Positions 4,843 to 60,002 are shown, counted from the stretch's first letter. The stretch: 64,000 bases of DNA from an archaeon (GCA_043808285.1 JAZDFA010000007.1:29100-93099); one strand, 5' to 3'. Made by a program: numbers and translations. Notes: generated by a model not told the origin, from the sequence alone.

Positions 4843-4947
4843 CTTTTCAAGCAAAAACTAATTGAAATTTGCCCCCGCTTTTTATATATTTTTCTACAAT
4901 CCTCAAAAGAAAAATATTTTAAAGCCATTTTTGTTGCTTTGTGGAAT

Positions 4948-5019
4948 GGACCCATGGTCTAGTGGCACGACGTCTCCTTGACGTGGAGAAGATTAGAGGT
5001 TCGATTCCTCTTGGGTCCA
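4948..5019 (+). tRNA. tRNA-Val(GAC)
   Basis: GGACCCA..TGGGTCC acceptor; TCTCC-TTGACGT-GGAGA anticodon arm. Confidence 0.95.
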
Positions 5020-5085
5020 TTTTTAACGAAAAAATATTAATTTTTCAGCAACATTTAAATATCACTTTGATGTGACTAAGATATA

Positions 5086-6963
5086 ATGTTGTCGTCCTCA
5101 AAAAAAGCACAAGTAACTATTTTTGTAATTATTGGAGTGCTCATAGTTTCAGCGGTGTCCTTATTCTTTTATTTCAAAACAGCTCCTTCATATGTCTCTG
5201 CAGAATTTAAGGAAGTTGAAACATATTTTACAGAATGCATCAATAATAACATAAAAGAAGGCTCTGCATTAATTGGATCTGGGGCAGGATACATAAATCC
5301 TCCTAAGTTTGAGAAAGGTTCAGAATACATGCCTTTTTCCTCACAACTTGATTTTTTTGGCAATGCGGTGCCTTACTGGTTCTATATCTCTGGAAATAAT
5401 ATAATGAAAGAACAAGTGCCTTCACTAAATGAAATGCAAAAACAGCTTTCTTCTTTTATTAATGGAGAAATAAAAAATTGTGACTTTAGTGTCTTTGAAA
5501 GCAGAGGATATAACATAACATTAGGAGAAGTAAAAAGCAGTGTTACGATAAAAGATGAGCAGATAGATGCAGAGATAAATGCTGCATTGGTAATAAATAA
5601 AGAAGAAAAAAGCGGGAGAATAACAAATCATAAAACCTCTCAAAAAACAAAACTTGGCAAATTTTACAAGATAGCCAGAGAGATATATGGAAAACAAAAA
5701 GAAGAGCTTTTCCTTGAAAATTATAGTTTAGATATACTATATCTATATGCGCCTGTGACAAAAGTAGAAATTTCCTGCAGCCCTAAAACTTGGATGAAGC
5801 AAACAGTGAAAGAAGATTTGAAGAATGCACTGCAGGCAAATATGGGGGCTATAAAGATAGAAGGTAGCTATTATCAAAATAAAAGAGATACTAATTATTT
5901 CATCGTTAAATCTCCCAAAAAAGTAAATGAGAATGTAAATTTCCTCTACTCTCCACTATGGGAGACGAAGATAGATATATGGGATGATAATGGAGACAGC
6001 GATACAATGATTGCAAAGCCTGTTGGGAATCAGAAAGGAATGGGTATCTTAGGATTCTGTTATGTTCCTTATCATTTTGTATATGATGTAGGATTCCCAG
6101 TAATGGTGCAGGTTTATGATGAAAAAGAATTATTCCAATTCCCAGTAGTAGTATACTTAGAAAAAAATAGCATAAGACCTAAATTGGAAGGAGAGGCAAT
6201 TCAAGAAACTGCAGGAATATGCGACAATAAAGTTACTGATGCATTGATAGCTACAATGGATAATGAAATGAAAGCAGTTGAAGCAGAAATCAAATATCAA
6301 TGCCTCAATGAAGTTTGTGATATTGGAAAGACTGCTATAAAAAATAATGAAGCGGTCCTTGAAACAAAAGTGCCTCAATGCATAGGCGGAACATTGATGG
6401 CTTCAGCAGAAGGATATTCAGATTCCCAATTAACAATAGATACAAATGAAGAGACAACTGCCGCCATAATAATGAACAAGATTTACACTCTTAATGTTGA
6501 TATTTTTGTTGGAGGTGTTCCACTTTCTGCTTCGCAAGAAAGCGCATTGATAACATTTGATTCAGGCGATGAAATAAAAACACTCTCTTATCCTTCTCAA
6601 AAAACAATAAAGCTCAAAGAAGGATATTATAATATCTCTGCAGAAGTCTACAGAACAGGCAATCTTGTAATAGGAAGTCAAAAAACAACCCAATGTGTGA
6701 AAGTACCAAAAACAGGAATGTTTGGATTTTTTGGAATGGAAGAGGAACAATGTTATGACATAGAAATTCCTTCTCAGAAATTAACACAGCTACTTGAAGG
6801 CGGCGGAAAAATACAAGATTATCATATTGGAGAAGACACTTTAAAAAACGCCAAAAAAATAGAAATAACAACAAGCATAATCCCCTTGCCAAAAACAATA
6901 ATGGACCTTCAAAATAGTTATGATAATGTTGAAAATAGCGAGATGGATATAAGGATTGTGTAA
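5086..6963 (+). CDS. Large class III signal peptide (pilin-like) surface protein
   Basis: N-terminus KKAQ-VTIFVIIGVLIV (prepilin-peptidase-type site plus hydrophobic helix); beta-rich C-terminus with paired Cys. Confidence 0.75.
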   Translation: MLSSSKKAQVTIFVIIGVLIVSAVSLFFYFKTAPSYVSAEFKEVETYFTECINNNIKEGSALIGSGAGYINPPKFEKGSEYMPFSSQLDFFGNAVPYWFYISGNNIMKEQVPSLNEMQKQLSSFINGEIKNCDFSVFESRGYNITLGEVKSSVTIKDEQIDAEINAALVINKEEKSGRITNHKTSQKTKLGKFYKIAREIYGKQKEELFLENYSLDILYLYAPVTKVEISCSPKTWMKQTVKEDLKNALQANMGAIKIEGSYYQNKRDTNYFIVKSPKKVNENVNFLYSPLWETKIDIWDDNGDSDTMIAKPVGNQKGMGILGFCYVPYHFVYDVGFPVMVQVYDEKELFQFPVVVYLEKNSIRPKLEGEAIQETAGICDNKVTDALIATMDNEMKAVEAEIKYQCLNEVCDIGKTAIKNNEAVLETKVPQCIGGTLMASAEGYSDSQLTIDTNEETTAAIIMNKIYTLNVDIFVGGVPLSASQESALITFDSGDEIKTLSYPSQKTIKLKEGYYNISAEVYRTGNLVIGSQKTTQCVKVPKTGMFGFFGMEEEQCYDIEIPSQKLTQLLEGGGKIQDYHIGEDTLKNAKKIEITTSIIPLPKTIMDLQNSYDNVENSEMDIRIV

Positions 6964-6964
6964 A

Positions 6965-9900
6965 ATGAAAAAAATGTTGGTCATGTCTGGAATAGTAATC
7001 ATCCTTCTAGCATGTGCAGTAGTAAATGCACAGCAGTATTTTGCTCCAAGTCCTCTCTCTTATTATTCAGGGAATATTAATAATTATTGGCCTTCATATG
7101 GGAAAGAAGAATGCACTGCAAGGCAGGATTTTATAGTCCAGATAATGCCTGGTGGATGTTCTCCAGCTGTAGTAAGAAGCGATTTGCTTGAAGAGCAAAA
7201 TGTTCCTGTTTTCTGCCAATTGACAGGGATTAAGATTAATCCCCTTATACAAGTACCAAAAATAACAAGTATTAGCATAGGGAGAAATAATATGTCAAAA
7301 GACATTGCAGGTATCGGATTTCACCCAGCAAGAGCTGCATTAAGGACTAATGGCAATGAGCTTACCGGTTCCCCGATCATAAATAATTGGGGATATCTTG
7401 TAGTGATTTTAAAGAAACAGCCAATTGAAAAAAATATGAGTAAAACCGTTGAAGCAAGCCTTAATGCAGTAATACAATATCAAGCGGAAGAAACATTTGG
7501 CATTGGAAAAGCATCTTTCATAAGCCCCCAGATAAGCGACGAACTATGGCAACAAAACTACAAACAGTATGGATTCTGGAAGGGAAAGGGATATGTAAGA
7601 GTAAGTGAAATAGGAAGTGATAGCCAAGGAGAATTTGCAAGAGTTGATATTTATCTTGATGCAAATAGGAAACTTACTTCATTATTAATAAGAGAAGGGC
7701 AAACATACCCTCAAGATGTTTATTTGCCCGGATATTATTGCCAAGCTGCATTGAAAGTTGCTGTAGAAGGAATTTCTTCTGAACCAAAACCTAAGGCAAA
7801 AATAAGTGTAAACAATGAAGTTATGTGGGTCTCACAGGGCCAAAAGATAGCAGAAGATAAATGCACTGTTAATACAGTTGAGCAGGACATTTATGGAAGC
7901 GGGCAAGTTGAGATAAGATGCCCAGATAAATTGCACAAGCTTTTACTAAATCCTGCCAAGGCAACTCTTTCTTTTGAAATAAATGGAAAAGAGACAGAAA
8001 AGACAGTTGGAGTGAAGGAGATCATTGATAGCGGAACTGGCGCATTTGTCGCATTTATAGGAGATACTGGCAAGGCAGCAAATGATAAGATACGTGGGAT
8101 AAATAAACAATTTATAGTAATTGGAAAACCAAATAACATTATAATGACTGACACCCATTATGACTTGATAAGCTTCAAGACAAGAAAGATTATTGAGGGG
8201 GATAAATTTAATGGATTTGGTAAACTAACTTCCCAAAATGCGCTCTCATTCTTAGCTAACTTAAAGAATCTATTTAATGTGGGAGATAAAGTCCCAAACA
8301 TTGCAGAAAATGATGATTTTGATGCCGCTAAAGCACTCACTGAAACAGAGTTTAAGGCGCAACTTGCAGCAAAACTTAAAAAACAATTTGGCGACAAAAT
8401 AGAATTTGAGGTATCAATGCAGGAAGAGAAAAAAGATTCTTTGTTTGGAAATAAGATAATAGAAAATTTCATATTCAAAGGATTGGAAAGTTCATATGAT
8501 AGAGAATACAGTCAAGACATTGGTTCAGTAATGGAAGAAAATTACAAAAATGCAATTGAGGAATATAGGAATATACAGACCAGCTATGGAGAAGAGAAAT
8601 CAACATATGAGGAAGGTTGGAAAGATGAGCCTATTGGAGCCCAAGCGTTGTATAGTGCTGCGCAACTCGCAAGATATCTAGAAAAATTCAAGACAGAAGC
8701 AGAAATTTTAACAGAACTTGTTGAAAAATACCCAGATTCAAAAATCTCAGAAGATGCATTAATCCATCTTCAAACATTAAAACAAAATGACATGACTAAT
8801 GCTGTTTCAACTGCATTCATAAGTGGCAAGTCTTACTCTATGGCTCTTGAAGAAGTTAAAGATGTAAGCCTTAATGATAAAGGCGTAACTTTATTGGTAA
8901 ATGGCAATCAGGGAAAATACACTGTTGGAGATATAATCTGGGAAGATGTAGTGATAAAAGATATTAAGGATGAGTATATCACTATAGAAAGCAAAACTTT
9001 AACGATAAGCAAGCCTGCACTAAAAAAGAAAGATGTCATAAATATCCCATATAAGGCAAAAAAGGCAGACGCAAAGGGAGATATTATAGAAACACCAGAA
9101 ACAATTACTGTACAAGTAGTAGATATAATGCTTGTGAAAGAAGCTAGGATAAAACTTACCCCCTTGGTTGAAAGGACAGAAACACAAACAAACTTTACAT
9201 TCAAAATAGGAATAGAGAAAAGAGCATTAAAATTAAGCGATGCCAAAGCAAAAGAAATAATAACCGAACTTGATGCCACAATAGCCCAATGGAAAAAGCT
9301 TAACAATGACCTTGGAAATCTGATAAAGGCATGGAAGGGAACATGTTTTATAACCTCTACATACCTGATTGGGCAAAGCTTCTTCTCAAGCTTTGGCGGA
9401 GGAAGCAGTGCAAGAAATAAAGTAATGAGGGGGGGTGGAGGATGGTGGGAAAAGTGCACCCAATTAGTCAATGAAGACCCTAAATACAACAAAGATGTTC
9501 ATAAATGCCTTGCAGAAAATAACGATGAGATAGAACAAGAAGTAAGTGTAATGAAAAACAGTCTTGGTAATGTAGATGCAAAGGTAAAGGCTACTACAAA
9601 AATGGTGCAAGGTAGTAACCTTCTAGCCAACATGAAAGACACAAAGGCTTCAACAGCAGCTTATGGTGCAGACATAAAAACAAGATATGCTAGACAGGGA
9701 ATGGATCTCTCTGACACTTTCAAAAAAGAACAATTTGATTATGTAATAAATAATATAGATAAGAGTGGGGCGTATAGCTCTGACTTAAAAGAAATTGATT
9801 TATGGACTGGAGTTTATAATGACCCTAAATCCACCACCGATCAAAAAGAGCAGGCGAAAAAGAAACTACTCTCAATAATGGAACCAATGAAAAGCGATGT

Positions 9901-12900
9901 GGATGGGGCCTTGCAGATAGAAAAAAGTAATGAGATTGATAAACAAAATGGTGTTTCTGATGAATATGCAAAATTTGATCAGGTTCCAATATTGGAATTG
10001 AAAGATACGCTAAAAACAGCTAATATAATAGAAACAGAAACCAAGACACTAGTAATAAAAAAACTAAATGGCGAAGAAAAAAGGAGGAATACTCCTGAAA
10101 ATAAAGAGATAATCCAATATACCAGACAATCTACATCTTTAGGCAAACTTTATATCATCGGAACTCTAAGCGGAGGCCAACTTGCAAGCAATGAAATATA
10201 TCATTATGTTAGTGCGGATAAAACTACAGTGTATTTAACTGAATTATCTGCAGATGAAAAGAAACAGATTCCTGGGGGAATTATTGTAAAACAATTAACT
10301 GCTAAAGATTTAAGTTGCAACAATGTATACAAAAATCCAGAAGTAAAATTCCATGAGAAAGCGCCAGATACTGGATTCCCAGCATTAGTTCCATTAGATA
10401 AAGAAAAAGGATGGTATGTAGCAACAAAACCTGCTGGAATGGGAATCCAATCATATGAATCTTCTGGAAAGATTGTGAGCTTTTGGATATGCAATGTTGG
10501 TGCAAATGGACTTGCAGAATTCTTTAATAATGAAAAAGATGACAGATACTGCAGACAATTTAATTTAGATATTGAAACAATTGACAATAAAAATCTGGGC
10601 ACGATTGGATGTCTTACTGAGAAGGAAACTGCAATATTAGTAAACCATGCACAAGAGGCATTGCGCATTGCGGCTGAAAGGTATGCGAATGGAATTACAA
10701 GCATGAATATTGACGGATTTGGGAATATTCCTATCTCTGCTCCGCCAACAATCACTCCCTCAATTGAATGTGAAGATTTCATGTCTGCAAAGAATTGCAA
10801 TCTGATGTTTAATGTATGTGACCCGGTATTATGCCCTTCAAGCAGATGCAATTATGGGGGAAAATATACTGTTCCAGATGTGGTGCAAACTGGAGTGGTT
10901 GGGGGGATGCTTTTATGCCTGCCAAACTTTGGGAAACCTTCTGAGGGGGGGGTTGCAGTTCCAGTATGTCTATCAGGAATACATGCAGGACTTGAAAATT
11001 ATATAATGATATTAAATGCAACAAAACAATGTCTGCAAGAACAAATAAAAAGTGGGAGAACTGTAGGTATATGCGACCAAATACAATCTGTTTATCTTTG
11101 CGAGTTTTTTTGGAAACAGGCAATGCCTTTGATGAAAATAGGGGTGCCTCAGTTAGTACAGTCCGTATTTGGGAGAGGCGGCGTTGGAGGTGGAGGAGAA
11201 TATATGGATGCTCAAGGTGCATGGACAAATCTTGAAAAATCTACAAATTACTTCACAAATTATTATGGAGTCAATGCATTCAAAGCATTCCAAATGAGGA
11301 GCACAGAAGAAGTTGGAACAGAAGTGTGCAGATCATTCATATCAACAAGGTATCCTACTAGCGCTGATGGATTCAATAAACTTCTAGAACCAGAATCTCC
11401 GACACAATTCACTGCTAAATTCTCAGAGATTGTGATTACTGATGCCACTGTTCCTGCAACATCTCAGTATAAAGTGTATATCTGGGTCTATGCTGGAAAA
11501 GACCAAGGAATTTATTATGATGTATACTTAAAGGGTGCACCAACTACTGCATACTATCAATCTTTAGGCCAAATGCAAGTTCCTGGAGCAGTGGGATATA
11601 TCCCTACAGGGGAAAAAGTAGACCAGACAATAGATTTTACAGGACCTGCAGGGTACAAGGAATTATGTGTAAGAATCAACAATCAGGATAAATGCGGATT
11701 TACACAAGTAACTACTGACTTCGGAGTTGAAGAAATAAAGAATCTCTATCTTAAAGAGCAGGCAACAAATATTATAGAGACAGAAGAAGAATGCATATCT
11801 GGAACACCTACTGTAACTCCAATGATGCAATTAAACATCCAGCAAGGAGTTGAAGAATCTCTAAATCCCCAGATATACAAGCAGGGGATAATAAGAATCT
11901 GTTCTTCAGAAAATCCTGCCAAAACAACTCATCCAAGCAGATATGTTGAAGTTGGCTACTGCACAGACAAGAGCATAAAATGCTGGCTAGATGGAAAATC
12001 TGTAAATCAAAGCATCAGTGATTTAGGACTGGCAAACGAAACATTGGATACTGCGAAGGAATTGATTAAACAGATAGATGCCGAGGGATATCTCACACAA
12101 GACCAGGCTAAGGATAAATTCACTGAAATAGATAATCTAAAGGGAGAGGATAAAAGCAATGTGGGGCTAATGAAAAAAATAGCTCTAGAAGTAGGAACGA
12201 TAAGGAACCAATATAAAATAAGCAAATTAGATACAATGCCTAGCAGAGAAATAAGTGCTAAGATTGATGAGATTATCACGCCGATAATTTCTAGATATAG
12301 AAATATAATTGAAAAATCAATTACAAATGACAATAAAATAAAAGCAAATTTTGAGATTGCCAAGATTTACAATGCAATTACAAAATATCTATATGATGAC
12401 CCAGAAAACAAATTCAAGAGCCAAGCACAAACGCCTGTAGAAAATAAGCCTATTAGCAGTAAGAATATTTTAGATTTGACCAAGATAGTATTTGGTCAGA
12501 GAATAAGTGTTAGTGAGAGCGGACTGAGTGAGGAAGTAATCGTAACAGACATTAGTGGTCTTAGTAAGGGCACATTCTTGGCAAAGGGAGTAACCAGCAA
12601 CACCCTATGGAGATATACATATGACGGTGTAACAAAAACTGGAAGTTGGAACCAAGAAACTGTTACAGCAGCAAATAAACAAGAAATAGAGCAAACAACT
12701 GCAAGAAGTTATGATATAAATCTTGACAAGATGAATAGAGTTACTGTAACATTTAACAAAGATGAGAAGAAGACTCTGCTTTTTAATAAGAATGGATATG
12801 ACGTTTCTGTTGATTTTAGTGGATGGGGGGCAGCAAATGCTCAAAACAAAGCAGTTATTTTATTTAATTCAAAAACATTATCAATTACCTCTACAAAATT

Positions 12901-13582
12901 AGTAGAATATGATTTAGATGGGGACAATAAAAAGGACATAGGAGTAGATGACACTGGAAGGAGCTTTAAATCAGGCTCATACATCTCTCTTATTTTTACA
13001 AGATTAAGCAAAATAAGTTCTAAATGCAGCGAATGCAATGGATTTTTTGCGTTCTGCAGTATGGCACAATGTCATGATAAAGGAGAGTGTTATGTTAATT
13101 ATAATCCTAGTTTCTGGAAAAGTTCAAATACTGATTATGAATGTTTAAGTTGCTGGGAAGACAAAGTAGTAAATTGTAATTTATTTAACAATCTGGATGA
13201 ATGTGAGAACAATAAATGCGGGATATCCGGATGTTTATGGGCTAATGGAAAATGCCAATTAGAATCAGAAAAGCAAGAGCAAATAATCAGCACTGCAAAA
13301 GATTGTGCAAAATGCGGTGCAGGATTGTTCAATGTATGCAATTCAGCAGAAAAATGTAGAGGTCTTGGAAGTTGCTATACTAAGATAGTTGGTGGTTTCC
13401 TTGGATCTTACAACTGTTTAAACTGCGATACAAATACTAAATGCAGCAGTTTAGAAAGAGAAGACGAATGCACATGGAATAAATGCAACCTTGACTGCCT
13501 ATGGGCCGATAACAAAGGATGCCTTTCTGACGAACAGATAGATATCGAAGTGGAAGCTGAGGATAAATGGGGTTATATTTAA
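6965..13582 (+). CDS. Giant (~2200 aa) secreted Cys-rich surface protein
   Basis: Signal peptide; TPR-like ALYSAAQL..ELVEKYPDS; Cys clusters (CDPVLCPSSRC); two C-terminal Cys-rich repeats. Confidence 0.85.
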   Translation: MKKMLVMSGIVIILLACAVVNAQQYFAPSPLSYYSGNINNYWPSYGKEECTARQDFIVQIMPGGCSPAVVRSDLLEEQNVPVFCQLTGIKINPLIQVPKITSISIGRNNMSKDIAGIGFHPARAALRTNGNELTGSPIINNWGYLVVILKKQPIEKNMSKTVEASLNAVIQYQAEETFGIGKASFISPQISDELWQQNYKQYGFWKGKGYVRVSEIGSDSQGEFARVDIYLDANRKLTSLLIREGQTYPQDVYLPGYYCQAALKVAVEGISSEPKPKAKISVNNEVMWVSQGQKIAEDKCTVNTVEQDIYGSGQVEIRCPDKLHKLLLNPAKATLSFEINGKETEKTVGVKEIIDSGTGAFVAFIGDTGKAANDKIRGINKQFIVIGKPNNIIMTDTHYDLISFKTRKIIEGDKFNGFGKLTSQNALSFLANLKNLFNVGDKVPNIAENDDFDAAKALTETEFKAQLAAKLKKQFGDKIEFEVSMQEEKKDSLFGNKIIENFIFKGLESSYDREYSQDIGSVMEENYKNAIEEYRNIQTSYGEEKSTYEEGWKDEPIGAQALYSAAQLARYLEKFKTEAEILTELVEKYPDSKISEDALIHLQTLKQNDMTNAVSTAFISGKSYSMALEEVKDVSLNDKGVTLLVNGNQGKYTVGDIIWEDVVIKDIKDEYITIESKTLTISKPALKKKDVINIPYKAKKADAKGDIIETPETITVQVVDIMLVKEARIKLTPLVERTETQTNFTFKIGIEKRALKLSDAKAKEIITELDATIAQWKKLNNDLGNLIKAWKGTCFITSTYLIGQSFFSSFGGGSSARNKVMRGGGGWWEKCTQLVNEDPKYNKDVHKCLAENNDEIEQEVSVMKNSLGNVDAKVKATTKMVQGSNLLANMKDTKASTAAYGADIKTRYARQGMDLSDTFKKEQFDYVINNIDKSGAYSSDLKEIDLWTGVYNDPKSTTDQKEQAKKKLLSIMEPMKSDVDGALQIEKSNEIDKQNGVSDEYAKFDQVPILELKDTLKTANIIETETKTLVIKKLNGEEKRRNTPENKEIIQYTRQSTSLGKLYIIGTLSGGQLASNEIYHYVSADKTTVYLTELSADEKKQIPGGIIVKQLTAKDLSCNNVYKNPEVKFHEKAPDTGFPALVPLDKEKGWYVATKPAGMGIQSYESSGKIVSFWICNVGANGLAEFFNNEKDDRYCRQFNLDIETIDNKNLGTIGCLTEKETAILVNHAQEALRIAAERYANGITSMNIDGFGNIPISAPPTITPSIECEDFMSAKNCNLMFNVCDPVLCPSSRCNYGGKYTVPDVVQTGVVGGMLLCLPNFGKPSEGGVAVPVCLSGIHAGLENYIMILNATKQCLQEQIKSGRTVGICDQIQSVYLCEFFWKQAMPLMKIGVPQLVQSVFGRGGVGGGGEYMDAQGAWTNLEKSTNYFTNYYGVNAFKAFQMRSTEEVGTEVCRSFISTRYPTSADGFNKLLEPESPTQFTAKFSEIVITDATVPATSQYKVYIWVYAGKDQGIYYDVYLKGAPTTAYYQSLGQMQVPGAVGYIPTGEKVDQTIDFTGPAGYKELCVRINNQDKCGFTQVTTDFGVEEIKNLYLKEQATNIIETEEECISGTPTVTPMMQLNIQQGVEESLNPQIYKQGIIRICSSENPAKTTHPSRYVEVGYCTDKSIKCWLDGKSVNQSISDLGLANETLDTAKELIKQIDAEGYLTQDQAKDKFTEIDNLKGEDKSNVGLMKKIALEVGTIRNQYKISKLDTMPSREISAKIDEIITPIISRYRNIIEKSITNDNKIKANFEIAKIYNAITKYLYDDPENKFKSQAQTPVENKPISSKNILDLTKIVFGQRISVSESGLSEEVIVTDISGLSKGTFLAKGVTSNTLWRYTYDGVTKTGSWNQETVTAANKQEIEQTTARSYDINLDKMNRVTVTFNKDEKKTLLFNKNGYDVSVDFSGWGAANAQNKAVILFNSKTLSITSTKLVEYDLDGDNKKDIGVDDTGRSFKSGSYISLIFTRLSKISSKCSECNGFFAFCSMAQCHDKGECYVNYNPSFWKSSNTDYECLSCWEDKVVNCNLFNNLDECENNKCGISGCLWANGKCQLESEKQEQIISTAKDCAKCGAGLFNVCNSAEKCRGLGSCYTKIVGGFLGSYNCLNCDTNTKCSSLEREDECTWNKCNLDCLWADNKGCLSDEQIDIEVEAEDKWGYI

Positions 13583-13596
13583 CAAGGTTGATTAAA

Positions 13597-14841
13597 ATGC
13601 AAAAAAATGCTTCATTTGCAGGATTGATTTTTTTTTCAACCATGGTTATGGTGTTGCTTATAACAATCGCATTGATAGATTCAAAACCAACTATCAGCGG
13701 CTATGCAGCTTCTTCATTAAATACTATTGACTCAATAAGCTATTCTGCTTCTGAATTTCAAAATGCGCAATATGAGGCAGATTATAAATCGAAAAAAAGC
13801 ACTTATGAGATTGTAGATAAATATGCAGAACAATATGACATAAGCTTTAATCTTGTTCGCGCAATAATCAGAATGGAAAGCTCCTGGAAGCATACTACCT
13901 CTCCAAATAACAAGGGAGCTGTGGGAATAATGCAGCTTAGAACTACTGCAACAGATGACATGAGAAATGAAGAGGGAGCATGTTCTGATTTTTGCCGCAA
14001 TCTTAAAGTAGATAGAAATAATCTTGATGATAATATTCATGGAGGAATTTGTTATCTTGCATGCCAAAAAGAAAGGTTTGGAATCTATAACAGCCCAAAA
14101 CTTATTATCGCGGCATATAAGGAAGGTCCAAGTGCAGTAGACAAAAAATGCATAACCTGCTGGTTTTGCAAGCAAAAAACATATGATGTTTGCACTAGCA
14201 AATTAGACAGCATAACAGTAGATTATGTCTCAGATGTTGCAACAGGTTATGAGGATTATGCCTCAAACTCCCAGATGGAAAACAATAAAGACATTGCCTC
14301 AGGTTCAAAGATAGTGGTAGTAGATGCAGGGCATGGGGGCAAAGATACTGGAGCGACAAGCTCTTCAGGATATCCTGAAAAAACAGTGACTCTTGCTATC
14401 GCCAAAGAGCTTGAAACTCAGCTTAAACAGCAGGGAATCAATGTCATAATGACGAGGAATTCAGATGTTTATCCTACCCTGACTGAAAGGGTTGAAATCG
14501 CAAATAGCAACAATGCAAACCTATTCATTAGCATTCATGCAAATTCTGCCAAAACAAAGCCATGCTCTGCAAATGGTCCTGAAGTCTGGTCTTATGATTC
14601 TGCAAAAAGCAAGGAGATGGCAAAATCAGTTGTAGATGAAATAAGCACTGCCTTGAATGCCAATAACCGAGGTACAAAAACAACCTCAAATCTTTATGTA
14701 CTCAAAAAAACAAAAATGCCTGCGATACTTGTTGAAGTGGGGTTCATATGCAATCAGGGAGATTTTAATATAATCACAAATCCTTCAAAGCAAAGACAGA
14801 TTGCTGCTGCGATTTCCCAATCAGCAAGCATGTATGCATGA
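13597..14841 (+). CDS. Membrane-anchored lytic transglycosylase (SLT) + N-acetylmuramoyl-L-alanine amidase (Amidase_3) fusion
   Basis: SLT motifs AIIRMESS, GAVGIMQL, NIHGGICYL, AAYKEGP; amidase motifs VVDAGHGG, EK, FISIHAN, PAILVEVGF; N-terminal TM. Confidence 0.92.
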   Translation: MQKNASFAGLIFFSTMVMVLLITIALIDSKPTISGYAASSLNTIDSISYSASEFQNAQYEADYKSKKSTYEIVDKYAEQYDISFNLVRAIIRMESSWKHTTSPNNKGAVGIMQLRTTATDDMRNEEGACSDFCRNLKVDRNNLDDNIHGGICYLACQKERFGIYNSPKLIIAAYKEGPSAVDKKCITCWFCKQKTYDVCTSKLDSITVDYVSDVATGYEDYASNSQMENNKDIASGSKIVVVDAGHGGKDTGATSSSGYPEKTVTLAIAKELETQLKQQGINVIMTRNSDVYPTLTERVEIANSNNANLFISIHANSAKTKPCSANGPEVWSYDSAKSKEMAKSVVDEISTALNANNRGTKTTSNLYVLKKTKMPAILVEVGFICNQGDFNIITNPSKQRQIAAAISQSASMYA

Positions 14842-14904
14842 TTTTTTCTTAGAATAAAGATTATTTGGAAGTGAATTTAAGCAACACCCGCGGATTATTC
14901 CAAA

Positions 14905-16209
14905 CTAATTATTCCATAATTCTGACTTATAAAGATAATAGACCTTTTTTAGCTGCCTAAGAAAATTATTCTTCCCATTGCCCAGACTGCATATCCCGAG
15001 ATATTCCTCATTGGGGTTAATAAAATTCTTCATCCTTTTCTTTAATTCCTCCTCGCTTATATTGGGGCTGCCCTGCTTTATCAATTCTATATCAAAAGCA
15101 TCATGCTCCAGGGGGTCTGTGGTTTTCCACCATTCATCTGTCCATTCAAATATAACTCCTCCTAGGGAATTCCTATTTCCAGAACCCGCAAAATTTGATG
15201 AAATAGTCTTCCAGCATCTTGAATGTATCTCTGCCTGTATGCTCTCATCCTCTTCAAGTTTCCCATTATTATATGAAGAAGTTCCATATTCTGTGATTAT
15301 AACCGGTTTGCCAATATTTTTTTTTACAGCAGAAAATAATTGGTTACCTGCCTTATCAAGATCAAATGCATTTGCCCCGAATATATCTATATCTGGGATA
15401 TATTTTGCCATGGCTCCCACGAAATGCGTGCTTGTATTACAGAGTATTACTGGATGTTTTTTGTCATTCTTGTGTATAACCTTTGCCACATCATTTACAA
15501 AAGAATAATATTCTTTAGGATAGATTGCTGCATTTGTTCTTGTTCCCATATGAGTATTTTCATTTCCAAGAACCCATCCAAGCACGAATGGCTCATTCTT
15601 ATAAGATTTTACTATTGAAATTACCTCTTCAAGCATCTTTTTTTTATGATCTGGATTTGTGTAATCTGTTCCTTCTTGCCATGATGCTCCAGAACCTTTA
15701 GTGTAAGCGCCGAGATAATCCCCAACAAGAACCATGACGCCATACTTTTTATACAAGTCATTAAGCGTCTTTTTTGATTCCTCTTCACTAAAATCTCTTA
15801 TGTGGTAGATTCTTATTGTATTGACGCCCATTTCCTTCATTATAGAGAAATCCCCCTTACGAGGTTCATTCACATCCTGTACATTGTTTTTGTTGGCATC
15901 AATAAATGATTCGTAAGGTGCGTTCGCTTTGCCATTTTTGTCAGAATCCTCGTTCATCCAGTCAAACCTTACTATCTGCGGGGAATATCCCGGCGGGGTT
16001 GGTTCGTATACCATTCCCTTGACTATGTATCTCTTTTTGTTGACAAAAAGATTCCAGTCATCCTTTATTTTTTTGACCTCTACATATGATGGTTTAGTTT
16101 CAATATACTTTCTGATGCTTAGAGTGCTACACCCATTAAGAAGAACAATTGAAAAAAGACCTACACCTAAAACACATTTTGCTATAAGAGACTCCAGATT
16201 TTTTCTCAT
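14905..16209 (-). CDS. Clan GH-A (GH2-like TIM barrel) glycoside hydrolase, lipoprotein-like
   Basis: MGVNTIRIY; WVLGNE (acid/base); IITEYG (nucleophile); FEWTDEWWK; lipobox-like LLNGC. Confidence 0.85.
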   Translation of the reverse strand: MRKNLESLIAKCVLGVGLFSIVLLNGCSTLSIRKYIETKPSYVEVKKIKDDWNLFVNKKRYIVKGMVYEPTPPGYSPQIVRFDWMNEDSDKNGKANAPYESFIDANKNNVQDVNEPRKGDFSIMKEMGVNTIRIYHIRDFSEEESKKTLNDLYKKYGVMVLVGDYLGAYTKGSGASWQEGTDYTNPDHKKKMLEEVISIVKSYKNEPFVLGWVLGNENTHMGTRTNAAIYPKEYYSFVNDVAKVIHKNDKKHPVILCNTSTHFVGAMAKYIPDIDIFGANAFDLDKAGNQLFSAVKKNIGKPVIITEYGTSSYNNGKLEEDESIQAEIHSRCWKTISSNFAGSGNRNSLGGVIFEWTDEWWKTTDPLEHDAFDIELIKQGSPNISEEELKKRMKNFINPNEEYLGICSLGNGKNNFLRQLKKVYYLYKSELWNN

Positions 16210-38815: not shown

Positions 38816-41275
38816 ATGGACATTGCAGCAATAGAGAAAAAATGGCAGGAAGAATGGGATAACTCGCATGTATTTGAAAGTGAAGCAGGAGGGGGGCAAA
38901 AATATTATGTATTGGAGATGTTTCCATATCCTTCTGCATCAGGATTGCACATGGGCCATGCATTCAATTATACAATCGGAGATGTATATGGGAGATTGAA
39001 AAGAATGCAGGGATATAATGTCCTCTACCCTATGGGCTATGATTCGCTGGGGCTGCCTGCAGAGATTGCTGCAATAAACAAGGGTATTAATCCTAAAGAG
39101 TATACTGATGAAGCAATTTCAAATTTCATAAGGCAGCAGAAGGCACTGGGGTTAAGCTATGACTGGAGAAGGGAAGTAAGAACGCATAATCCAGATTATT
39201 ACAAATGGGACCAATGGATTTTTCTTAAGATGTTTGAAGGGGGAATAGCCTATAGGAAAAATTCTGCAGTAAACTTTTGCCCGCTATGCAATTCAGTTCT
39301 TGCAAATGAGCAAGTGCATGATGGAAAATGCTGGAGGCATAAAGAAAAAGTTGAGATAAGGCAGCTTGAGCAGTGGTTCTTCAAGATTACAGATTATGCA
39401 GATGAATTATATGAATCAATAAATGAATTGAAAGAATGGCCCGCAGACATAAAAGCGATGCAAAAAAACTGGATTGGAAAAAGCTGGGGAACCGAGATAC
39501 TTTTTGAGATAAATGGAAAGAAATGGCCAATATTCACAACAAGACCTGACACAGTTTATGGCGTAACATTCATGGTTGTTTCTGCGCAGCATCCAAAGTT
39601 AATGGAATTGGTTACAAAAGAGCATGAAGGAGAGGTTAATGAATTCTTAAAAAAAATAAAATCAACAAGTGAAAAAGACTATGAAGAATTGGAAAAAGAG
39701 GGCGCATTCACCGGAAGCTATGCAATAAATCCTAGCACTAATGAAAAAATCCCAATTTATGCAGGGAATTTTGTATTGGCAGATTATGGAAGCGGGATAG
39801 TAATGGCTGTTCCGGCGCATGACCAAAGAGACTTTGAATTTGCAAAGAAATATGGAATCAGGATAAAATTAGTCATACAACCAAAAAATCAAAGAATCGA
39901 AGCCGAAAAAATGGAGGAGGCATTCAGCGAAGAAGGATTCCTTGTAAATTCAGAGATGTTTAATGGAATGGAAAGCGCAAATGCAAAAGAAGCAATAACA
40001 ACTCATCTTCAAAAATTGGGCTTTGGAAAAAAGACAATACAATACAAGCTAAGAGATTGGCTTGTTTCAAGGCAAAGATACTGGGGAACACCCATCCCGA
40101 TAATATATTGCGATAAATGCGGGGCTGTGCCAGTGCCAGACAAAGACCTTCCTGTAATTCTTCCTGACAAAGTCGAGTTTGGAAAAGGGAATCCTCTTGA
40201 AACAAATTCATCTTTTGTAAATGTAAAATGCCCCAAGTGCAATGCAAATGCAAAAAGGGAAACTGATACAATGGATACTTTCGTAAATTCATCATGGTAT
40301 TTCTTAAGGTATTGCGATGCAAAAAATGAAAAAGAAATTTTTGGCAAGGACAAGGCAAAATATTGGATGCCAATTGACTGCTACATTGGAGGAAAAGAGC
40401 ATGCTTGCATGCACCTGATTTATTTCAGGTTTTATACAAAGTTCTTAAGAGACATTGGAGTTATTGATTTTAATGAGCCTGCTGTAAAATTGTTTAACCA
40501 AGGGATGGTTCATGGTGTTGACGGATCAGTGATGTCAAAATCAAGAGGCAATGTTATCGACCCTCTTGAAATGATAAGCAGATATGGCGCAGATACGCTA
40601 AGATTTTATCTTGTTTGCAATGCATCTGCAGACAAGGATTTCTTGTGGGGAGAGGAAAGCATTGAAGGCAGCTTTAGATTTGTAAAAAAAGTAATAGACT
40701 ATTTTGAAAAAGTAAAGTTTGGAAAATCCGGCCCAAGGGTGGAGAGCAAATTCAACCAGGCGATAAAGGATATAACTGCAGATGTTGAAAGCTTTAGATA
40801 CAATCTTGCAATAATAAAGATAAGAACATTTTTTGATTATCTTGGGGAAGAAGAAAACAGGATGGTTGTTGAGGGATTCCTCAAAATTCTTTCAATATTC
40901 TGCCCGCATATCTGCGAGGAGTTATGGCATGCACTTGGAAACAAGAATTTCATAAGTTTGCAAGAATGGCCAGCCAGCGATGAAAGCAAGATAAATCCAG
41001 AGATAGAAAAAAGAGAGCAGGAAATTTCAAAGACAATTGAGGACATAAGAAACATAGTCAAAATAATGAAGGAAAAGCAAGGCAAGGAGGCAAATACTGC
41101 TTATCTTTATATCATTCCCAAAGAGATTAGTAATTACAATGAGTCTATCCTAGACATGAAAAGGGTGCTAAATATAGAAATTAAAGCTTTTGCAAACAAT
41201 GATCCTTCAAAGCATGACCCTGCAAGTAAAGCAGGGAAGGCTAAACCGGGTAAGCCTGCGATATATATTGAGTAA
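38816..41275 (+). CDS. leuS: Leucine--tRNA ligase, bacterial type
   Basis: LEMFPYPS..LHMGH; FTTRPDT; SRQRYWGTPIP; VMSKS. Confidence 0.96.
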   Translation: MDIAAIEKKWQEEWDNSHVFESEAGGGQKYYVLEMFPYPSASGLHMGHAFNYTIGDVYGRLKRMQGYNVLYPMGYDSLGLPAEIAAINKGINPKEYTDEAISNFIRQQKALGLSYDWRREVRTHNPDYYKWDQWIFLKMFEGGIAYRKNSAVNFCPLCNSVLANEQVHDGKCWRHKEKVEIRQLEQWFFKITDYADELYESINELKEWPADIKAMQKNWIGKSWGTEILFEINGKKWPIFTTRPDTVYGVTFMVVSAQHPKLMELVTKEHEGEVNEFLKKIKSTSEKDYEELEKEGAFTGSYAINPSTNEKIPIYAGNFVLADYGSGIVMAVPAHDQRDFEFAKKYGIRIKLVIQPKNQRIEAEKMEEAFSEEGFLVNSEMFNGMESANAKEAITTHLQKLGFGKKTIQYKLRDWLVSRQRYWGTPIPIIYCDKCGAVPVPDKDLPVILPDKVEFGKGNPLETNSSFVNVKCPKCNANAKRETDTMDTFVNSSWYFLRYCDAKNEKEIFGKDKAKYWMPIDCYIGGKEHACMHLIYFRFYTKFLRDIGVIDFNEPAVKLFNQGMVHGVDGSVMSKSRGNVIDPLEMISRYGADTLRFYLVCNASADKDFLWGEESIEGSFRFVKKVIDYFEKVKFGKSGPRVESKFNQAIKDITADVESFRYNLAIIKIRTFFDYLGEEENRMVVEGFLKILSIFCPHICEELWHALGNKNFISLQEWPASDESKINPEIEKREQEISKTIEDIRNIVKIMKEKQGKEANTAYLYIIPKEISNYNESILDMKRVLNIEIKAFANNDPSKHDPASKAGKAKPGKPAIYIE

Positions 41276-41294
41276 ATTTAAAAAAGAGCAAAAA

Positions 41295-43619
41295 ATGTAC
41301 AAAAGAAGAATTTTAGCAATAATTGCAGTGATTTTTATTTTAAATTTCTTCCAAGCTGTTTCTGCAAGCACATATTATATTTCCCAAAGCGGGAATGACA
41401 GTAATGATGGGCTCACAGAAACTACTCCTTGGGGGACGATGAATAAGATAATCACTACAACATTTGAGCCAGGAGATGTAATAAAATTCAAGACAGATGA
41501 GACCTGGCAGGAATATCTCAATTTCGAATCTTCTGGCACAGAAGCAAACCCGATCAAAATAACTTCCTATGGTGGGGGGGCAAAACCAATTATCGTGGGA
41601 GGAATAAGATTTTATGCTTTCCCTCAAATGCATGATGTTATTGTTGATGGTTTTGAATTGGATGGCACTGCTATAAGAGATCCTCTAGGGCTTGAAGCGG
41701 CATACCGCATAACTATCTGGAATAATATTCTTGATGCCAAAAATTTTGCAGGAAGAAGCGGGGTAGTGATTGGCTCGAAAGAGGAGAGTATCTCGAATGA
41801 TAATCTTATTGCAGATAATATGATAATTAATTGCGGCAATGACAGCAGCCCTTATGGAGTTGGTGTACAGATTACCGGAGGCTCATCTTATAACACTGTG
41901 GTAAACAACACAATATTAAACTGTGTTGAAGTGGGCCTGCAAACATATTCTACAGTTGGTGCAGCCCCCTGCAGAAATAATTTTTTTATAGGAAACAAGA
42001 TAAAAACAGACTGGACAGACAAAAGTAGCTGCATAAATTTTGGATGGATGTCTGAGAATAATATTGCAGAGCATAATTATTGCGAGAACACTCATCATGG
42101 TATAGACATAGATTCTGCAATTTCTGCGGTAAATATCTATCGAAATAATATAGTATACAATTCTATGGAGCTTGCAGTAATAATGGCAAATAGCTATGGC
42201 AACTCTGGCTATTCAATAATTGAAAATAACACATTCATAGCAGGACCTGCAACAGTAAAGGGAGTGTGGTATGTTAATTATTCCAGTTATACAGGCATGG
42301 GCCACATCTTTAGAAACAATATTGTTACTGCAATACAGTCATGGTGGCCAGTATTGATCATTGGAGAAGGGATGCAAGTGCAAAGCGATTACAATTTGTT
42401 CTGGGGCCCAGTTGCTTTAAGGATAGAATATAATGGAAAAGCGTACAGCTCATTAAGTGAATACCAAAATGCCTCAAATAAAGATATACACTCTGTTTTT
42501 TCAGACCCTATGATTACTGATATTGCGAATTCGAATTTTACGCCGCAATACAACAGCCCAGCCTGCATCGCATCTGACTATGCAAAATATAAAGGAGCAT
42601 TACAATGTTCATATAACAGTGTAATTCCAATTCAGAAAAAAACATGCAGCGAAATGGGAGGTGCATGTTTTTCTTCATGCAGCAGCCATAATAACTGCAG
42701 CAGTGCAGATTATACCTGCAATAGCGGAATCTGCTGCATGGGGGCGTGTTCTGCAATAATCTGCATTGATGCAGATGGTGATAAATATAATGCAAGTGCA
42801 CCAGGATGTGGGATAGCTGACTGCAATGAAACAAATGCAGAGATAAACCCTTCAAAAGAGGATATTTGCAACAGCAATCTTGATGAAGACTGTGATGGAG
42901 AGGACAAAAGATGCAAGATAATTTACAATATTGGACCTATCAAAGAGAGTGAAAAGATTTCAAAACAGATTGGAATAAACGAAACAATTGAGTTTGAAGT
43001 AGAAACATTGCAATACAGCATAAAGCTTCTTGAAATAACTGCTGATGAAATAAAGATAGAGATAAGGGCAAGGAAAATAACCAGCATTACTGGAAATATA
43101 ATCTCAATTATTACTGGGCAGGCATATGGAGAATATGGAGATTATGGAGAAGAGGAAGTGTACCTGATTGTTTCGCTTAGAAGAGGGGAATCCCGCTCTT
43201 TTGATATGAATAAAGATGGAATTTATGAAGTGAGGATAAATGCCAATACAATAGCAGAAAATACAGCCAGTATTGAAGTAGAAAGAATAAATGAAAGGGT
43301 AGAGATACCCCCAGTAACAGATTTAGAACAGCAGCAGCCTCTGTCTCAACAAACTGGGAAAGAGATTATTTGCGGGGATTCAAAATGCAGCAGCGGTGAA
43401 ACTGCCTCCAATTGCTGCATTGACTGCGGCTGCGCAATGGGAGAAGAATGCAAAAGCAATCAATGCGTTGTAACTCAAAAAGCGACTGCCACCCAGATAA
43501 ACAACTTGATGATTGCATCATTAGCTTCACTCCTGTTCATAGGAGTAATAATCTACATAGTCTATTCAAAAATGCAAAAAGACCGGGAAGAAATTGAAGG
43601 AATGCTTGAAAAGTATTAA
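41295..43619 (+). CDS. Membrane-anchored surface protein with right-handed beta-helix (pectin lyase-like) and Cys-rich modules
   Basis: Signal peptide; TYYISQSGNDSNDG..PW; NN-ladder repeats; DADGD..DCNETNAEINP..DEDCDG motif; C-terminal TM. Confidence 0.85.
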   Translation: MYKRRILAIIAVIFILNFFQAVSASTYYISQSGNDSNDGLTETTPWGTMNKIITTTFEPGDVIKFKTDETWQEYLNFESSGTEANPIKITSYGGGAKPIIVGGIRFYAFPQMHDVIVDGFELDGTAIRDPLGLEAAYRITIWNNILDAKNFAGRSGVVIGSKEESISNDNLIADNMIINCGNDSSPYGVGVQITGGSSYNTVVNNTILNCVEVGLQTYSTVGAAPCRNNFFIGNKIKTDWTDKSSCINFGWMSENNIAEHNYCENTHHGIDIDSAISAVNIYRNNIVYNSMELAVIMANSYGNSGYSIIENNTFIAGPATVKGVWYVNYSSYTGMGHIFRNNIVTAIQSWWPVLIIGEGMQVQSDYNLFWGPVALRIEYNGKAYSSLSEYQNASNKDIHSVFSDPMITDIANSNFTPQYNSPACIASDYAKYKGALQCSYNSVIPIQKKTCSEMGGACFSSCSSHNNCSSADYTCNSGICCMGACSAIICIDADGDKYNASAPGCGIADCNETNAEINPSKEDICNSNLDEDCDGEDKRCKIIYNIGPIKESEKISKQIGINETIEFEVETLQYSIKLLEITADEIKIEIRARKITSITGNIISIITGQAYGEYGDYGEEEVYLIVSLRRGESRSFDMNKDGIYEVRINANTIAENTASIEVERINERVEIPPVTDLEQQQPLSQQTGKEIICGDSKCSSGETASNCCIDCGCAMGEECKSNQCVVTQKATATQINNLMIASLASLLFIGVIIYIVYSKMQKDREEIEGMLEKY

Positions 43620-58425: not shown

Positions 58426-60002
58426 TGATAGAAGGAATAAACCCGAGGGAATACCAGCAGAAAATTTTTGAAACATGCTCTAAGAAAAACTGCCTTGTAG
58501 TACTTCCTACTGGCATGGGCAAGACTCTTATTGCATTAATGCTTGCAGTGCAAAGGCAAAAGGAAGTGAGGCAATCAAAAGTGTTATTTCTCGCTCCAAC
58601 CAAGCCATTGGCAGAACAGCATTTCAAGTATTTTCAAAAACATCTCCCCCAATTGTACGGGCAGTTTGAACTTTTCACCGGGAAAGTTAATGCCGCAAAA
58701 AGAAAAGAGCTATGGAAAAAATCTGATGTTGTTTTTTCAACACCCCAGTGCATTGCAAATGATCTCAAAAGCGAGAGAATAAGCCTTGAAGATGTTTCGC
58801 TTCTTGTCGAGGATGAAGCGCACAGGTGCCTCAAAAGCTATGATTATGTTTATGTTGTAAAAAAATACAGGGAGCAGGGCAAAAACCAAAGAATTTTAGG
58901 GCTTACTGCTTCCCCGGGAAGTGACAAGAGCGTAATACAAAAAATATGTGAAAACCTTGACATAGAGGCTGTTGAGATAAGAACAAGAGAAAGCGGAGAT
59001 GTCAAGGAATACTTACAGGAGCTGCAAACAGAAGTTGAAAAAGTTGACTTGCCGCCCGATTTTGTAAAGATAAGAGATTTGATGGAGGAGATATTCAAAA
59101 GAAAAGCAGAGGAACTAAAAAATAGAAAACTGCTTTTTGCCCCCCCCACTAAAAAAAATCTTCTTGAATTGCAGGGAAGCATAATGAATTCTATCTCTTC
59201 TGGAAACAAGCACTTCAACTTACTAAAAGGTGCAAGCGTATGCGCACAGGCAATTAAAGTGCAGCATGCACTTGAGATGATTGAAACTCAGGGAGCTGAG
59301 ATGTTTTATGATTATGTTAAAGGATTATTTGATCAGGCTGCCAAAGGCAAGAGCATGGCGGTAAAACATCTTGTCAAAACTACTGAATTGAACAGGGCAT
59401 ATATGATTGCTTCTGAATTAAAAATAAGGGGAATAAAGCATCCAAAACTTGAGAAGCTTAAAGAGATAATATCAAAAAGCATATTGCAAAACCCCAAGCT
59501 GAAAGCAATAATTTTTTCCCAGTATCGAAACACTGCCCTAGCAATATGTAAAGAACTAAATGGAATAGGAGGTATAAATGCCAGAGTTTTTCTGGGACAA
59601 ACAATGAAGGACGGGAAAGGCTTAAGCCAAAAGGAACAGCAGGAACTCATCAGGGATTTCGGCCTGGGAAAAGTGAACATGCTTGTTGCTACATCAATAG
59701 GGGAAGAAGGATTGGATATCCCAGAAGTAAACTTGGTGATTTTTTATGAACCGATACCTTCTGCAATAAGAAGAATACAGAGAATCGGGAGAACTGCAAG
59801 GCTTATGCCTGGAAAAGTTGTGATACTTGTTACAAGAAAAACCAGGGATGAGGCATACCACTATGCATCAATTGCAAAAGAGAAAAAAATGTATGGCATA
59901 TTAAATAACATGGGGAAAGAATTTAAAGATAAAGATAGCATTATTACATTAGACGATTTCGCAATAAAAGAAGAGGGGGAGAAAAGTAAAAATGTCTTTT
60001 GA
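58425..60002 (+). CDS. Hef/FANCM-like SF2 helicase without ERCC4 nuclease domain
   Basis: PREYQ; LPTGMGKT; DEAH; GLTASPG; EEGLDIP; QRIGRTAR. Confidence 0.92.
   Translation: MIEGINPREYQQKIFETCSKKNCLVVLPTGMGKTLIALMLAVQRQKEVRQSKVLFLAPTKPLAEQHFKYFQKHLPQLYGQFELFTGKVNAAKRKELWKKSDVVFSTPQCIANDLKSERISLEDVSLLVEDEAHRCLKSYDYVYVVKKYREQGKNQRILGLTASPGSDKSVIQKICENLDIEAVEIRTRESGDVKEYLQELQTEVEKVDLPPDFVKIRDLMEEIFKRKAEELKNRKLLFAPPTKKNLLELQGSIMNSISSGNKHFNLLKGASVCAQAIKVQHALEMIETQGAEMFYDYVKGLFDQAAKGKSMAVKHLVKTTELNRAYMIASELKIRGIKHPKLEKLKEIISKSILQNPKLKAIIFSQYRNTALAICKELNGIGGINARVFLGQTMKDGKGLSQKEQQELIRDFGLGKVNMLVATSIGEEGLDIPEVNLVIFYEPIPSAIRRIQRIGRTARLMPGKVVILVTRKTRDEAYHYASIAKEKKMYGILNNMGKEFKDKDSIITLDDFAIKEEGEKSKNVF

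Follow-up and report, generated by a model that had tools for sequence, protein, structure and literature searches.

The archaeal DNA studied here, a stretch of 64,000 nucleotides (nt) (GCA_043808285.1 JAZDFA010000007.1:29100-93099; hereafter the window), carries on its + strand three closely packed open reading frames (ORFs) of one orientation between positions 5086 and 14841. In this order they encode a 625-amino-acid (aa) protein with a class III signal (gene 1), a very large secreted protein (gene 2, the giant) and a murein hydrolase (gene 3). With ATG starts, the intergenic gaps amount to 1 nt (6963 to 6965) and 14 nt (13582 to 13597), and the database gene calls match these starts (P0004, 2205 aa; P0124, 414 aa). 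Because of such length and hundreds of homologs, the three ORFs are real and not chance frames. The original prediction for this DNA had described the same layout, i.e., three co-oriented genes with 1-nt and 14-nt gaps, coding for a 625-aa class III (KKAQ) protein, a secreted Cys-rich protein of ~2200 aa and an SLT + Amidase_3 fusion with a transmembrane (TM) segment, and the ORF calls, motifs and Pfam matches agree with it on each of these points. The features of the three genes are as follows.

5086..6963, + strand: gene 1 (P0001, 625 aa), proposed membrane or pilus anchor/adaptor of the giant
5101..5187, + strand: class III signal region of gene 1, KKA and Q followed by a hydrophobic helix (residues 6-34), read from the sequence
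6965..13582, + strand: gene 2 (P0004, 2205 aa from the ATG), the secreted giant; an in-frame TTG lies also at 6956
6965..7030, + strand: putative Sec-type signal peptide of the giant, MKKM...AVVNA before Q, from the hydrophobic N-terminal end, with the cleavage site proposed from the sequence
7040..7999, + strand: conserved N-domain of the giant (residues 26-345), from the conservation profile and alignment A3; candidate docking site for the gene 1 product
10262..12100, + strand: best-conserved part of the giant, its core (residues 1100-1712), which contains Gly-rich hydrophobic stretches and invariant Cys
13025..13522, + strand: two Cys-rich repeats at the C-terminal end of the giant (Cys 2021-2186)
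13597..14841, + strand: gene 3 (414 aa), SLT + Amidase_3; an in-frame ATG lies also at 13567
13813..14148, + strand: SLT domain (GH23 lytic transglycosylase; PF01464, P0003 residues 83-194, 46.3 bits, cut-off 21.3)
14314..14820, + strand: Amidase_3 domain (N-acetylmuramoyl-L-alanine amidase; PF01520, residues 250-418, 188 bits, cut-off 27)

Together, genes 1 and 2 form a core module of the order, and divergent forms of it occur throughout the class. Among 61 genomes of the order (our own included), from which 40 loci were fetched, one per relative genome, the gene 1 family is present in 60 (59 at E ≤ 3e-76; G056 at paralog level only), the search finding no homolog in G020, and the giant is present in 59, with none found in G002 and G056. 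In all 39 loci holding both, the gene 1 homolog lies directly upstream of the giant on the same strand, at spacings from an overlap to at most 178 nt (mechanical ORF calls); the 40th locus, L038, is cut by a contig end and stands outside this count. Beyond the giant, relatives often have S8e and TFIIB, as in the window. In a phylum sample of 401 genomes, all listed in the same class, the giant-core profile A1 matches 132 genomes, ~88 of them strongly (the weaker matches comprise only the most conserved ~140 positions, within frames of ~1000-2600 aa), and the gene 1 profile A2 matches 337 at E ≤ 1e-20; unpublished genomes were counted only in these phylum tallies (G297 for A1; G367, G297, G434, G296 and G375 for A2). 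Outside the order, 53 of 59 genomes (rows compared by hand) have both genes on one contig and strand at a distance of ~3.5-6.5 kb, and the remaining six have them on separate contigs. The wider giant family comprises 1065 database clusters that match the core at E ≤ 1e-10. As a side observation, a LAGLIDADG homing-endonuclease-like ORF (L025:12574-13275, - strand) adjoins the giant gene of G022.

The hydrolase is a variable accessory of the giant. When the tails of the 40 relatives' giants, cut behind the conserved core, were scanned with Pfam, murein-directed domains appeared in 23 at E ≤ 1e-3 (22 above the Pfam cut-off), namely SLT in 10 loci and weakly in one more, Peptidase_M23 in 7, Amidase_3 in 6, and NlpC/P60, Glucosaminidase and OmpA in one each; one SLT locus, L025, has a CAP domain as well. 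The wider giant family also carries PF18013 (phage tail-tip lysozyme), PF10030 (DUF2272), GH3, trypsin-like proteases and ankyrin repeats. The tail state changes at least 18 times on a maximum-likelihood tree built from the core with a careful search (41 rows); some of the apparent differences, e.g., M23 versus Amidase_3 in very close pairs, may partly reflect detection thresholds. Within a single genus, a clade with support of 100/100 unites the giants of G033, G041 and G051 (loci L046, L047 and L051), which carry Amidase_3, NlpC/P60 and glucosaminidase, respectively; in these three the cassette is internal, lying between the core and a conserved end of ~400 aa (38-46% identity, no Pfam match). 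The original prediction would have been refuted had relatives shown no conserved linkage. The gene 1–giant pair is conserved in this way, whereas a separate hydrolase gene is not constant; the link between giant and murein hydrolase is nevertheless conserved, since in many relatives the hydrolase forms part of the giant polypeptide itself.

The nearest relatives of the giant (core identity 53-64%) mostly carry Amidase_3 and SLT within the same polypeptide. The tail of our giant plus gene 3 is collinear with single proteins of the two nearest fetched relatives, G004 (2512 aa) and G003 (2392 aa), the Cys-rich repeats being 41% identical to G004 and gene 3 being 41% (G004) and 39% (G003) identical. 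Stand-alone homologs of gene 3 form three database clusters (P0125-P0127) of 413-414 aa, with 83, 63 and 62% identity and the same basic and hydrophobic N-terminal end. A one-base frameshift error as the source of the split is ruled out by several stops immediately upstream in the gene 3 frame. G045 may hold a second split, as a 646-aa downstream gene there matches M23 weakly, at 26.6 bits (cut-off 28.7). Judged from these alignments, the three-gene form is a derived fission of the two-gene form.

Gene 3 matches occur in 11 of the 61 genomes of the order, mostly inside very long frames, and its closest homologs beyond the clade are bacterial amidases that match the amidase part only, ~40% of the query. 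Aligned to the solved structures 5emi, 1jwq (CwlV) and 4rn7, the amidase domain keeps GHGG, EK, SIHANS and LVEVGF, among which we take the zinc-binding residues to lie. The SLT part contains RMESSW, GIMQL and AAYKEG, invariant across four split homologs, which we assume to be the SLT catalytic motifs (E-S, GLMQ and AYNAG-like); it also matches phrog_342 ("internal virion protein with endolysin domain") and phrog_14342 ("lytic tail fiber protein"). Within the 414-aa form, residues 4-30 are hydrophobic and are predicted to give gene 3 an export or anchor segment of its own. Consistent with the earlier statement that DPANN archaea have no peptidoglycan, no Mur ligase, penicillin-binding transpeptidase or FtsW/RodA was found in the 86%-complete genome, so an autolysin role for gene 3 is unlikely. 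Taken together, the functional coupling of the giant to murein hydrolases is well supported, because relatives carry the fusions in their tails, the amidase motifs are kept and no genes for murein synthesis were found.

The gene 1 protein begins with MLSSSKKAQVTIFVIIGVLIV, which contains a class III signal, KKA/QVTIFVIIGVLIVSAVSLFFYF, with a short basic N-terminal end, a G or A at position -1 and a hydrophobic helix of ~20 residues; in 40 of 40 aligned homologs, [KR][GA]Q precedes a hydrophobic run. Gene 1 has no match in Pfam, NCBIfam or PHROGs, and a profile search of Protein Data Bank (PDB) sequences with A2 gave nothing credible. Its AlphaFold model (predicted local distance difference test, pLDDT, 87.6) opens with two helices, the N-terminal one at residues 3-31 and the other at 39-65, continues as an alpha/beta domain that reaches ~375 and closes with beta-sandwich domains at 383-625. 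The sandwich at 383-467 resembles domains of the transthyretin/CnaB type; its best VIA match is 9h68_A (Z 10.2, root-mean-square deviation [rmsd] 1.9, 81 aligned residues), and SlaB, 8qox_B, is matched at VIA Z 9.4 (rmsd 2.1, 82 aligned) and at a Foldseek E-value of 1.3e-4. The best Foldseek rows for the whole model are Gram-positive pilus adhesins at low template-modelling score (TM-score). Matches of sandwich 383-467 filled these whole-model searches, which thus effectively covered that part and not residues 36-375. From the model, we propose that the ectodomain ends in Ig-like stalk domains.

Paralogs of gene 1 occur elsewhere. A 281-aa class III paralog on contig C12 (G000:C12:82106-90463, L064) shares the first ~185 positions of the gene 1 family and is flanked by two ~1250-aa surface proteins of Big_13/Y_Y_Y type (Ig domains), and relatives have tandem modules of ~4.5 kb with gene 1 paralogs of ~260 aa, e.g., G044:C19 and G040:C36. 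The neighbours of the C12 paralog (~1230-1254 aa) were considered as relatives of the giant and rejected, as they have neither its N-domain nor its core. The position of the C12 paralog between large proteins, together with the tandem modules, suggests a general design in which a class III adaptor is paired with a large surface protein.

The N-terminal end of the giant is hydrophobic (residues 1-28), and the protein contains 55 Cys, which form clusters at 1118-1673 and 2021-2186. Its conservation profile, taken from a MAFFT alignment with fast settings, shows a conserved N-domain at ~50-340, in which residues 51-100 average 65% identity, a second conserved region at ~550-880, variable linkers, and the core, whose alignment A1 has a mean column identity of 43% with many invariant Cys and Gly. 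The giant has no match in Pfam, NCBIfam or PHROGs, its C-terminal tail likewise has none in Pfam, and no credible hit came from searching PDB sequences with the profiles A1 and A3. In the model of the core (pLDDT 66.9), confident beta domains flank a highly conserved stretch. Fold searches with this model returned only generic beta-sandwich or helical-hairpin matches (Foldseek against PDB, best E 1.5e-3 with TM ≤ 0.13 to the query; wide VIA search, best Z 7.8; BFVD, low TM). For the most conserved 236 aa of the giant, the best score in the ESM Atlas is 0.85, which we regard as a lead only.

The components required for class III processing and assembly, which the original prediction had proposed to look for elsewhere in the genome, were found together with platform proteins. 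A prepilin peptidase (Peptidase_A24, PF01478) lies at G000:C7:15398-15781, on the same contig as the locus, and a pilus-type locus at 50.7-54.0 kb of C12 contains T2SSE (PF00437), two T2SSF (PF00482) and small class III-like ORFs. Also on C12, at G000:C12:103339-105993 (L068:4339-6990), an 884-aa protein of the S_layer_C family (PF05124, 36.1 bits, cut-off 23.9) is likely a true S-layer protein, and three small class III-like ORFs stand just upstream of its gene, at 100.5-102.5 kb.

A complex of gene 1 residues 36-625 with giant residues 26-345 was predicted with a score of 0.53, against 0.01 for the best control; the runs agreed in at least 85% of contacts, and the partners had pLDDT of at least 63. 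Of the 157 solved complexes in the calibration, 116 attained that mark, as did 2 of 215 mismatched pairs, and scores ≤ 0.60 comprised only 18 of the 157 solved complexes plus both passing mismatches, counts that are only approximate for our case because our own alignments were used. The prediction points weakly to binding of the gene 1 product to the N-domain of the giant, weakly because both passing mismatches and so few of the solved complexes fall within that range. Of the structure and complex modelling that the original prediction had called for, the outcome is a gene 1–giant contact suggested at this low strength and a giant core that gave no convincing fold.

The organism is a DPANN archaeon of the Pacearchaeota/Woesearchaeota type, as had been claimed: the window carries the archaeal markers S3Ae, S8e, TFIIB and tRNA-splicing endonuclease (Pfam), the records of giant homologs are labelled Candidatus Pacearchaeota or Nanoarchaeota, and one gene 1 relative is labelled Woesearchaeota. 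The genome assembly comprises 865 kb in 15 contigs. The guanine-plus-cytosine (GC) content is even along the window (0.35-0.38). The following elements flank the three genes.

4947-5020: tRNA-Val, upstream of gene 1
5054..5061, + strand: TATA-box-like element TTTAAATA, 25 nt 5' of the gene 1 ATG, read directly; putative promoter
14842..14847, + strand: T6 run directly past the gene 3 stop, terminator-like; putative end of the unit

From its sequence and spacing we take TTTAAATA to be an archaeal TATA box, and the oligo-T run presumably acts as an archaeal terminator. From the position of TTTAAATA, the gene 1 transcript would be leaderless or nearly so. The layout of tRNA-Val, TTTAAATA and T6 fits a single archaeal transcription unit, in which the three genes would be co-transcribed. 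A promoter/terminator scan with bacterial-type models, which are ill-suited to archaea, gave nothing above shuffled sequences.

Several neighbouring genes deserve mention. Convergent to gene 3, a 434-aa TIM-barrel glycoside hydrolase is encoded at window positions 14905-16209 (- strand; GH2_C 43 bits, GH72-like 35 bits, weak GH5); this gene and gene 3 are placed between the giant and S8e/TFIIB, which in relatives often stand directly beyond the giant. A leucyl-tRNA synthetase at 38816-41275 (+ strand) matches the editing-domain family tRNA-synt_1_2 (222.8 bits), a match that we take to be typical of the bacterial-type enzyme and that would fit the many bacterial-like genes reported in these archaea. 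For a large Cys-rich protein of 809 aa at 41190-43619 (+ strand), the sole match is a Cys-rich metal-binding motif of the MopE type, which at 25.9 bits misses the cut-off of 27. A 935-aa protein at 59992-62799 (+ strand), with a hydrophobic N-terminal end and a C-terminal lipase/alpha-beta-hydrolase domain (DUF915, Lipase_2, PGAP1 and others), may be another secreted lytic enzyme.

On balance, we think that the locus probably encodes a cell-surface contact complex that opens the peptidoglycan of a bacterium touched by the archaeon. The class III helix of gene 1 would anchor this protein in the membrane, possibly in a type IV pilus-like fibre, where it would act as anchor or adaptor for the giant. 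The giant would be a Sec-exported, disulfide-rich scaffold; throughout the family, interchangeable cassettes at the distal end of this scaffold would bind or cut bacterial murein. In our genome, the cassette, a lytic transglycosylase plus an N-acetylmuramic acid (MurNAc)-L-Ala amidase, has been split off by gene fission as gene 3, a separated "warhead" that gained its own export or anchor segment, and the complex would locally open the peptidoglycan of the contacted bacterium, whether host or prey. Within this proposal we infer surface display, a bacterial target cell and the continued association of gene 3 with the giant, as well as pilus assembly, wall breaching and a bacterial host. A broader version, which strikes us as possible but doubtful, holds that the class III anchor and the giant form a host-contact organelle conserved class-wide, with a cassette matched to the envelope chemistry of the partner; that the transglycosylase, amidase, M23, NlpC/P60, glucosaminidase, protease and other cassettes all belong to such an organelle is likewise only a tentative idea.

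A number of observations weigh against the contact complex. At 625 aa, the gene 1 product exceeds a pilin in size four- to fivefold. The single cluster of pilus genes that was found is on another contig (C12), and none of these genes adjoins the locus; both points speak against assembly into a pilus. The score of the gene 1/giant complex falls in the weak band. The core of the giant shows no recognisable fold in PDB-sequence profile, Foldseek, VIA and BFVD searches, a result meaning that no known fold was detected, not that none exists, and its model falls below pLDDT 50 at core residues 166-243 and 334-376, the most conserved part. Gene 3, carrying its own export signal, could act apart from the giant. 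Finally, 17 of the 40 giant tails have no Pfam match, some of them being only 85-261 aa long; since these giants lack a detectable hydrolase domain, the pair must serve a more basic purpose that needs no hydrolase, for instance adhesion or contact, with the enzymes as additions. The surface machine for attaching to and breaching a bacterial wall that the original prediction had envisaged thus keeps its conserved coupling of giant and hydrolase, but wall cutting is not the whole function of the giant.

Other explanations account for parts of these data. The cassettes might serve nutrient scavenging, digesting the murein of dead bacteria or free sacculi for amino sugars and amino acids without any living target, as peptidoglycan of dead bacteria has been suggested as an amino-acid source for Pacearchaeota (PMC11537232). 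The small, metabolically poor genome (865 kb) would suit such a diet, but neither an LD-carboxypeptidase (S66) nor NagB, the two routes covered, was found in the 86%-complete genome, so a murein-catabolic role gets no support, and enzymes tied to a 2000-aa surface scaffold suit a contact site more than bulk digestion. The tails also contain M23 and OmpA-like binding modules, which are typical of wall attack or binding and not of catabolism, and we rate scavenging as rather unlikely. Antibacterial competition or defence, in which the complex or a released gene 3 product kills neighbouring bacteria with no symbiosis, also appears unlikely to us. Secreted peptidoglycan hydrolases (PGHs) of other archaea kill bacteria, PGH homologs are prominent in Nanoarchaeota (PMC12352652), and the cassettes turn over like arms-race weapons; the gene 1–giant pair, however, is near-universal and syntenic beside the housekeeping genes S8e/TFIIB, unlike patchy accessory weapons. 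Moreover, organisms with genomes this small are generally considered host-dependent.

Genes 1 and 2 could also be a structural envelope, an S-layer-like anchor and canopy comparable to SlaB/SlaA, with the hydrolase domains incidental. A universal, apparently single-copy pair in which a membrane-anchored protein is joined by a secreted partner of very large size would fit this, as would the resemblance of sandwich 383-467 to a SlaB domain (Z 9.4) and the 17 of 40 giants without hydrolase domains. Yet the genome has the separate S-layer-family gene on C12 described above, the likeness to SlaB concerns one generic transthyretin/CnaB-type domain equally matched by many unrelated proteins, and murein-specific domains gained independently time and again, in 23 of 40 tails, are hardly incidental, which together leave this explanation quite improbable. 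An artefact, i.e., a misassembly or frameshift that makes a separate hydrolase gene, or a bacterial fragment binned with the archaeon, might be suspected from the nearest gene 3 homologs outside the clade, bacterial amidases covering ~40% of the query. It is close to refuted by the even GC, the archaeal housekeeping genes on both sides, the same architecture in fused form in relatives, the several upstream stops and the split form in three other clusters; correspondingly, the contig is not chimeric at the hydrolase gene, a possibility that the original prediction had itself raised, as the order is the same as in one polypeptide of G004 and of G003. The contact complex thus remains our preferred explanation.

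Pacearchaeota and Woesearchaeota rank with the most widespread DPANN archaea, and no host is known for either. The locus and its relatives turn the published guess of a bacterial partner into a defined module, i.e., a constant class III anchor and giant scaffold with a broad and fast-changing repertoire of murein-specific cassettes. The natural split form is a small, easily expressed enzyme of 414 aa that lends itself to direct assay on sacculi. Should the module mediate contact with bacteria, hosts could be predicted and co-cultures attempted with the cassette types as a guide; if the broader host-contact organelle were real, the cassette type would predict hosts, many of them bacterial, implying large-scale cross-domain episymbiosis or archaeal predation on bacteria.

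The core idea, an attack on bacterial walls by these archaea, is already published (Castelle et al. 2021; Vigneron et al. 2022, PMC9723730). Castelle et al. described fam00969 (201 sequences, median 1947 aa, signal peptide fraction 0.79, CAZy GH23 fraction 0.53), found in 81% of 90 Pacearchaeota and 59% of 196 Woesearchaeota genomes and in none elsewhere, and proposed that it attaches to and degrades the bacterial walls of possible hosts; Vigneron et al. reported a "large lytic murein transglycosylase" and proposed a predatory, "vampiristic" life. A third study, "Archaea produce peptidoglycan hydrolases that kill bacteria" (PLoS Biol 2025, PMC12352652), counts PGH homologs in 175 of 3,706 archaeal genomes. 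All cultivated DPANN are reported to have archaeal hosts (PMC11291902). Going by the published description of the family rather than by comparison with its sequences, our giant is probably a member of fam00969: it is of similar size, has a signal peptide, and the names of its homologs are all Pacearchaeota, Nanoarchaeota or "archaeon". It differs in having no lytic domain itself, the SLT domain being encoded by the next gene downstream; GH23 is not universal in fam00969, however, as the published fraction is only 0.53 (Castelle et al. 2021). The family descriptions in the two papers speak of GH23 or transglycosylase only and mention no class III partner, other cassettes or turnover, and a partner family of ~625 aa is absent from 24 of the 51 rows of Module 98 in Table S3 of Castelle et al. 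Literature searches found no published work linking Woesearchaeota with a class III signal peptide, and for Pacearchaeota with the amidase name the only work found was one on archaeal viruses. The obligate class III partner, the cassette turnover and the gene fission were not found in print. The partner gene, the cassette repertoire, the turnover and the split variant are thus additional anatomy over the published family.

Among known systems, the lysins of phage tails and virions (tape-measure, ejection and tail-tip proteins) are similar in that a very large structural protein bears SLT, M23 or lysozyme domains and a murein hydrolase opens the wall locally at contact; the occurrence of PF18013 in the giant family and the PHROG matches of gene 3 add to this likeness. 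The giant, by contrast, has no sequence or fold similarity to phage proteins and no phage context, being a chromosomal core gene near ribosomal and TFIIB genes. With polymorphic toxins and evolved effectors, the giant shares a conserved N-terminal part of 1700-1800 aa and enzymatic cassettes that vary among close relatives, whereas no immunity gene is expected or seen at the locus, and in the clade with the internal cassette a ~400-aa end follows it. The Sulfolobus SlaA/SlaB pair (PDB 8qox) is likewise operon-like and combines a membrane-anchored beta-sandwich stalk with a very large secreted partner. SlaB is anchored at its C-terminal end, whereas the anchor of gene 1, the class III helix, is N-terminal; there is no sequence similarity between the two pairs, and our genome has the separate S-layer-family gene. 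Archaeal class III substrates, processed by peptidases of the PibD/FlaK type, include type IV pilins as well as non-pilin surface proteins. Compared with these, the gene 1 product is unusual in its 625 aa, its large multi-domain ectodomain and its lack of linkage to the ATPase/platform locus, but it shares with them the K/R-[GA] + Q motif and helix in 40 of 40 homologs and a Peptidase_A24 gene on the same contig.

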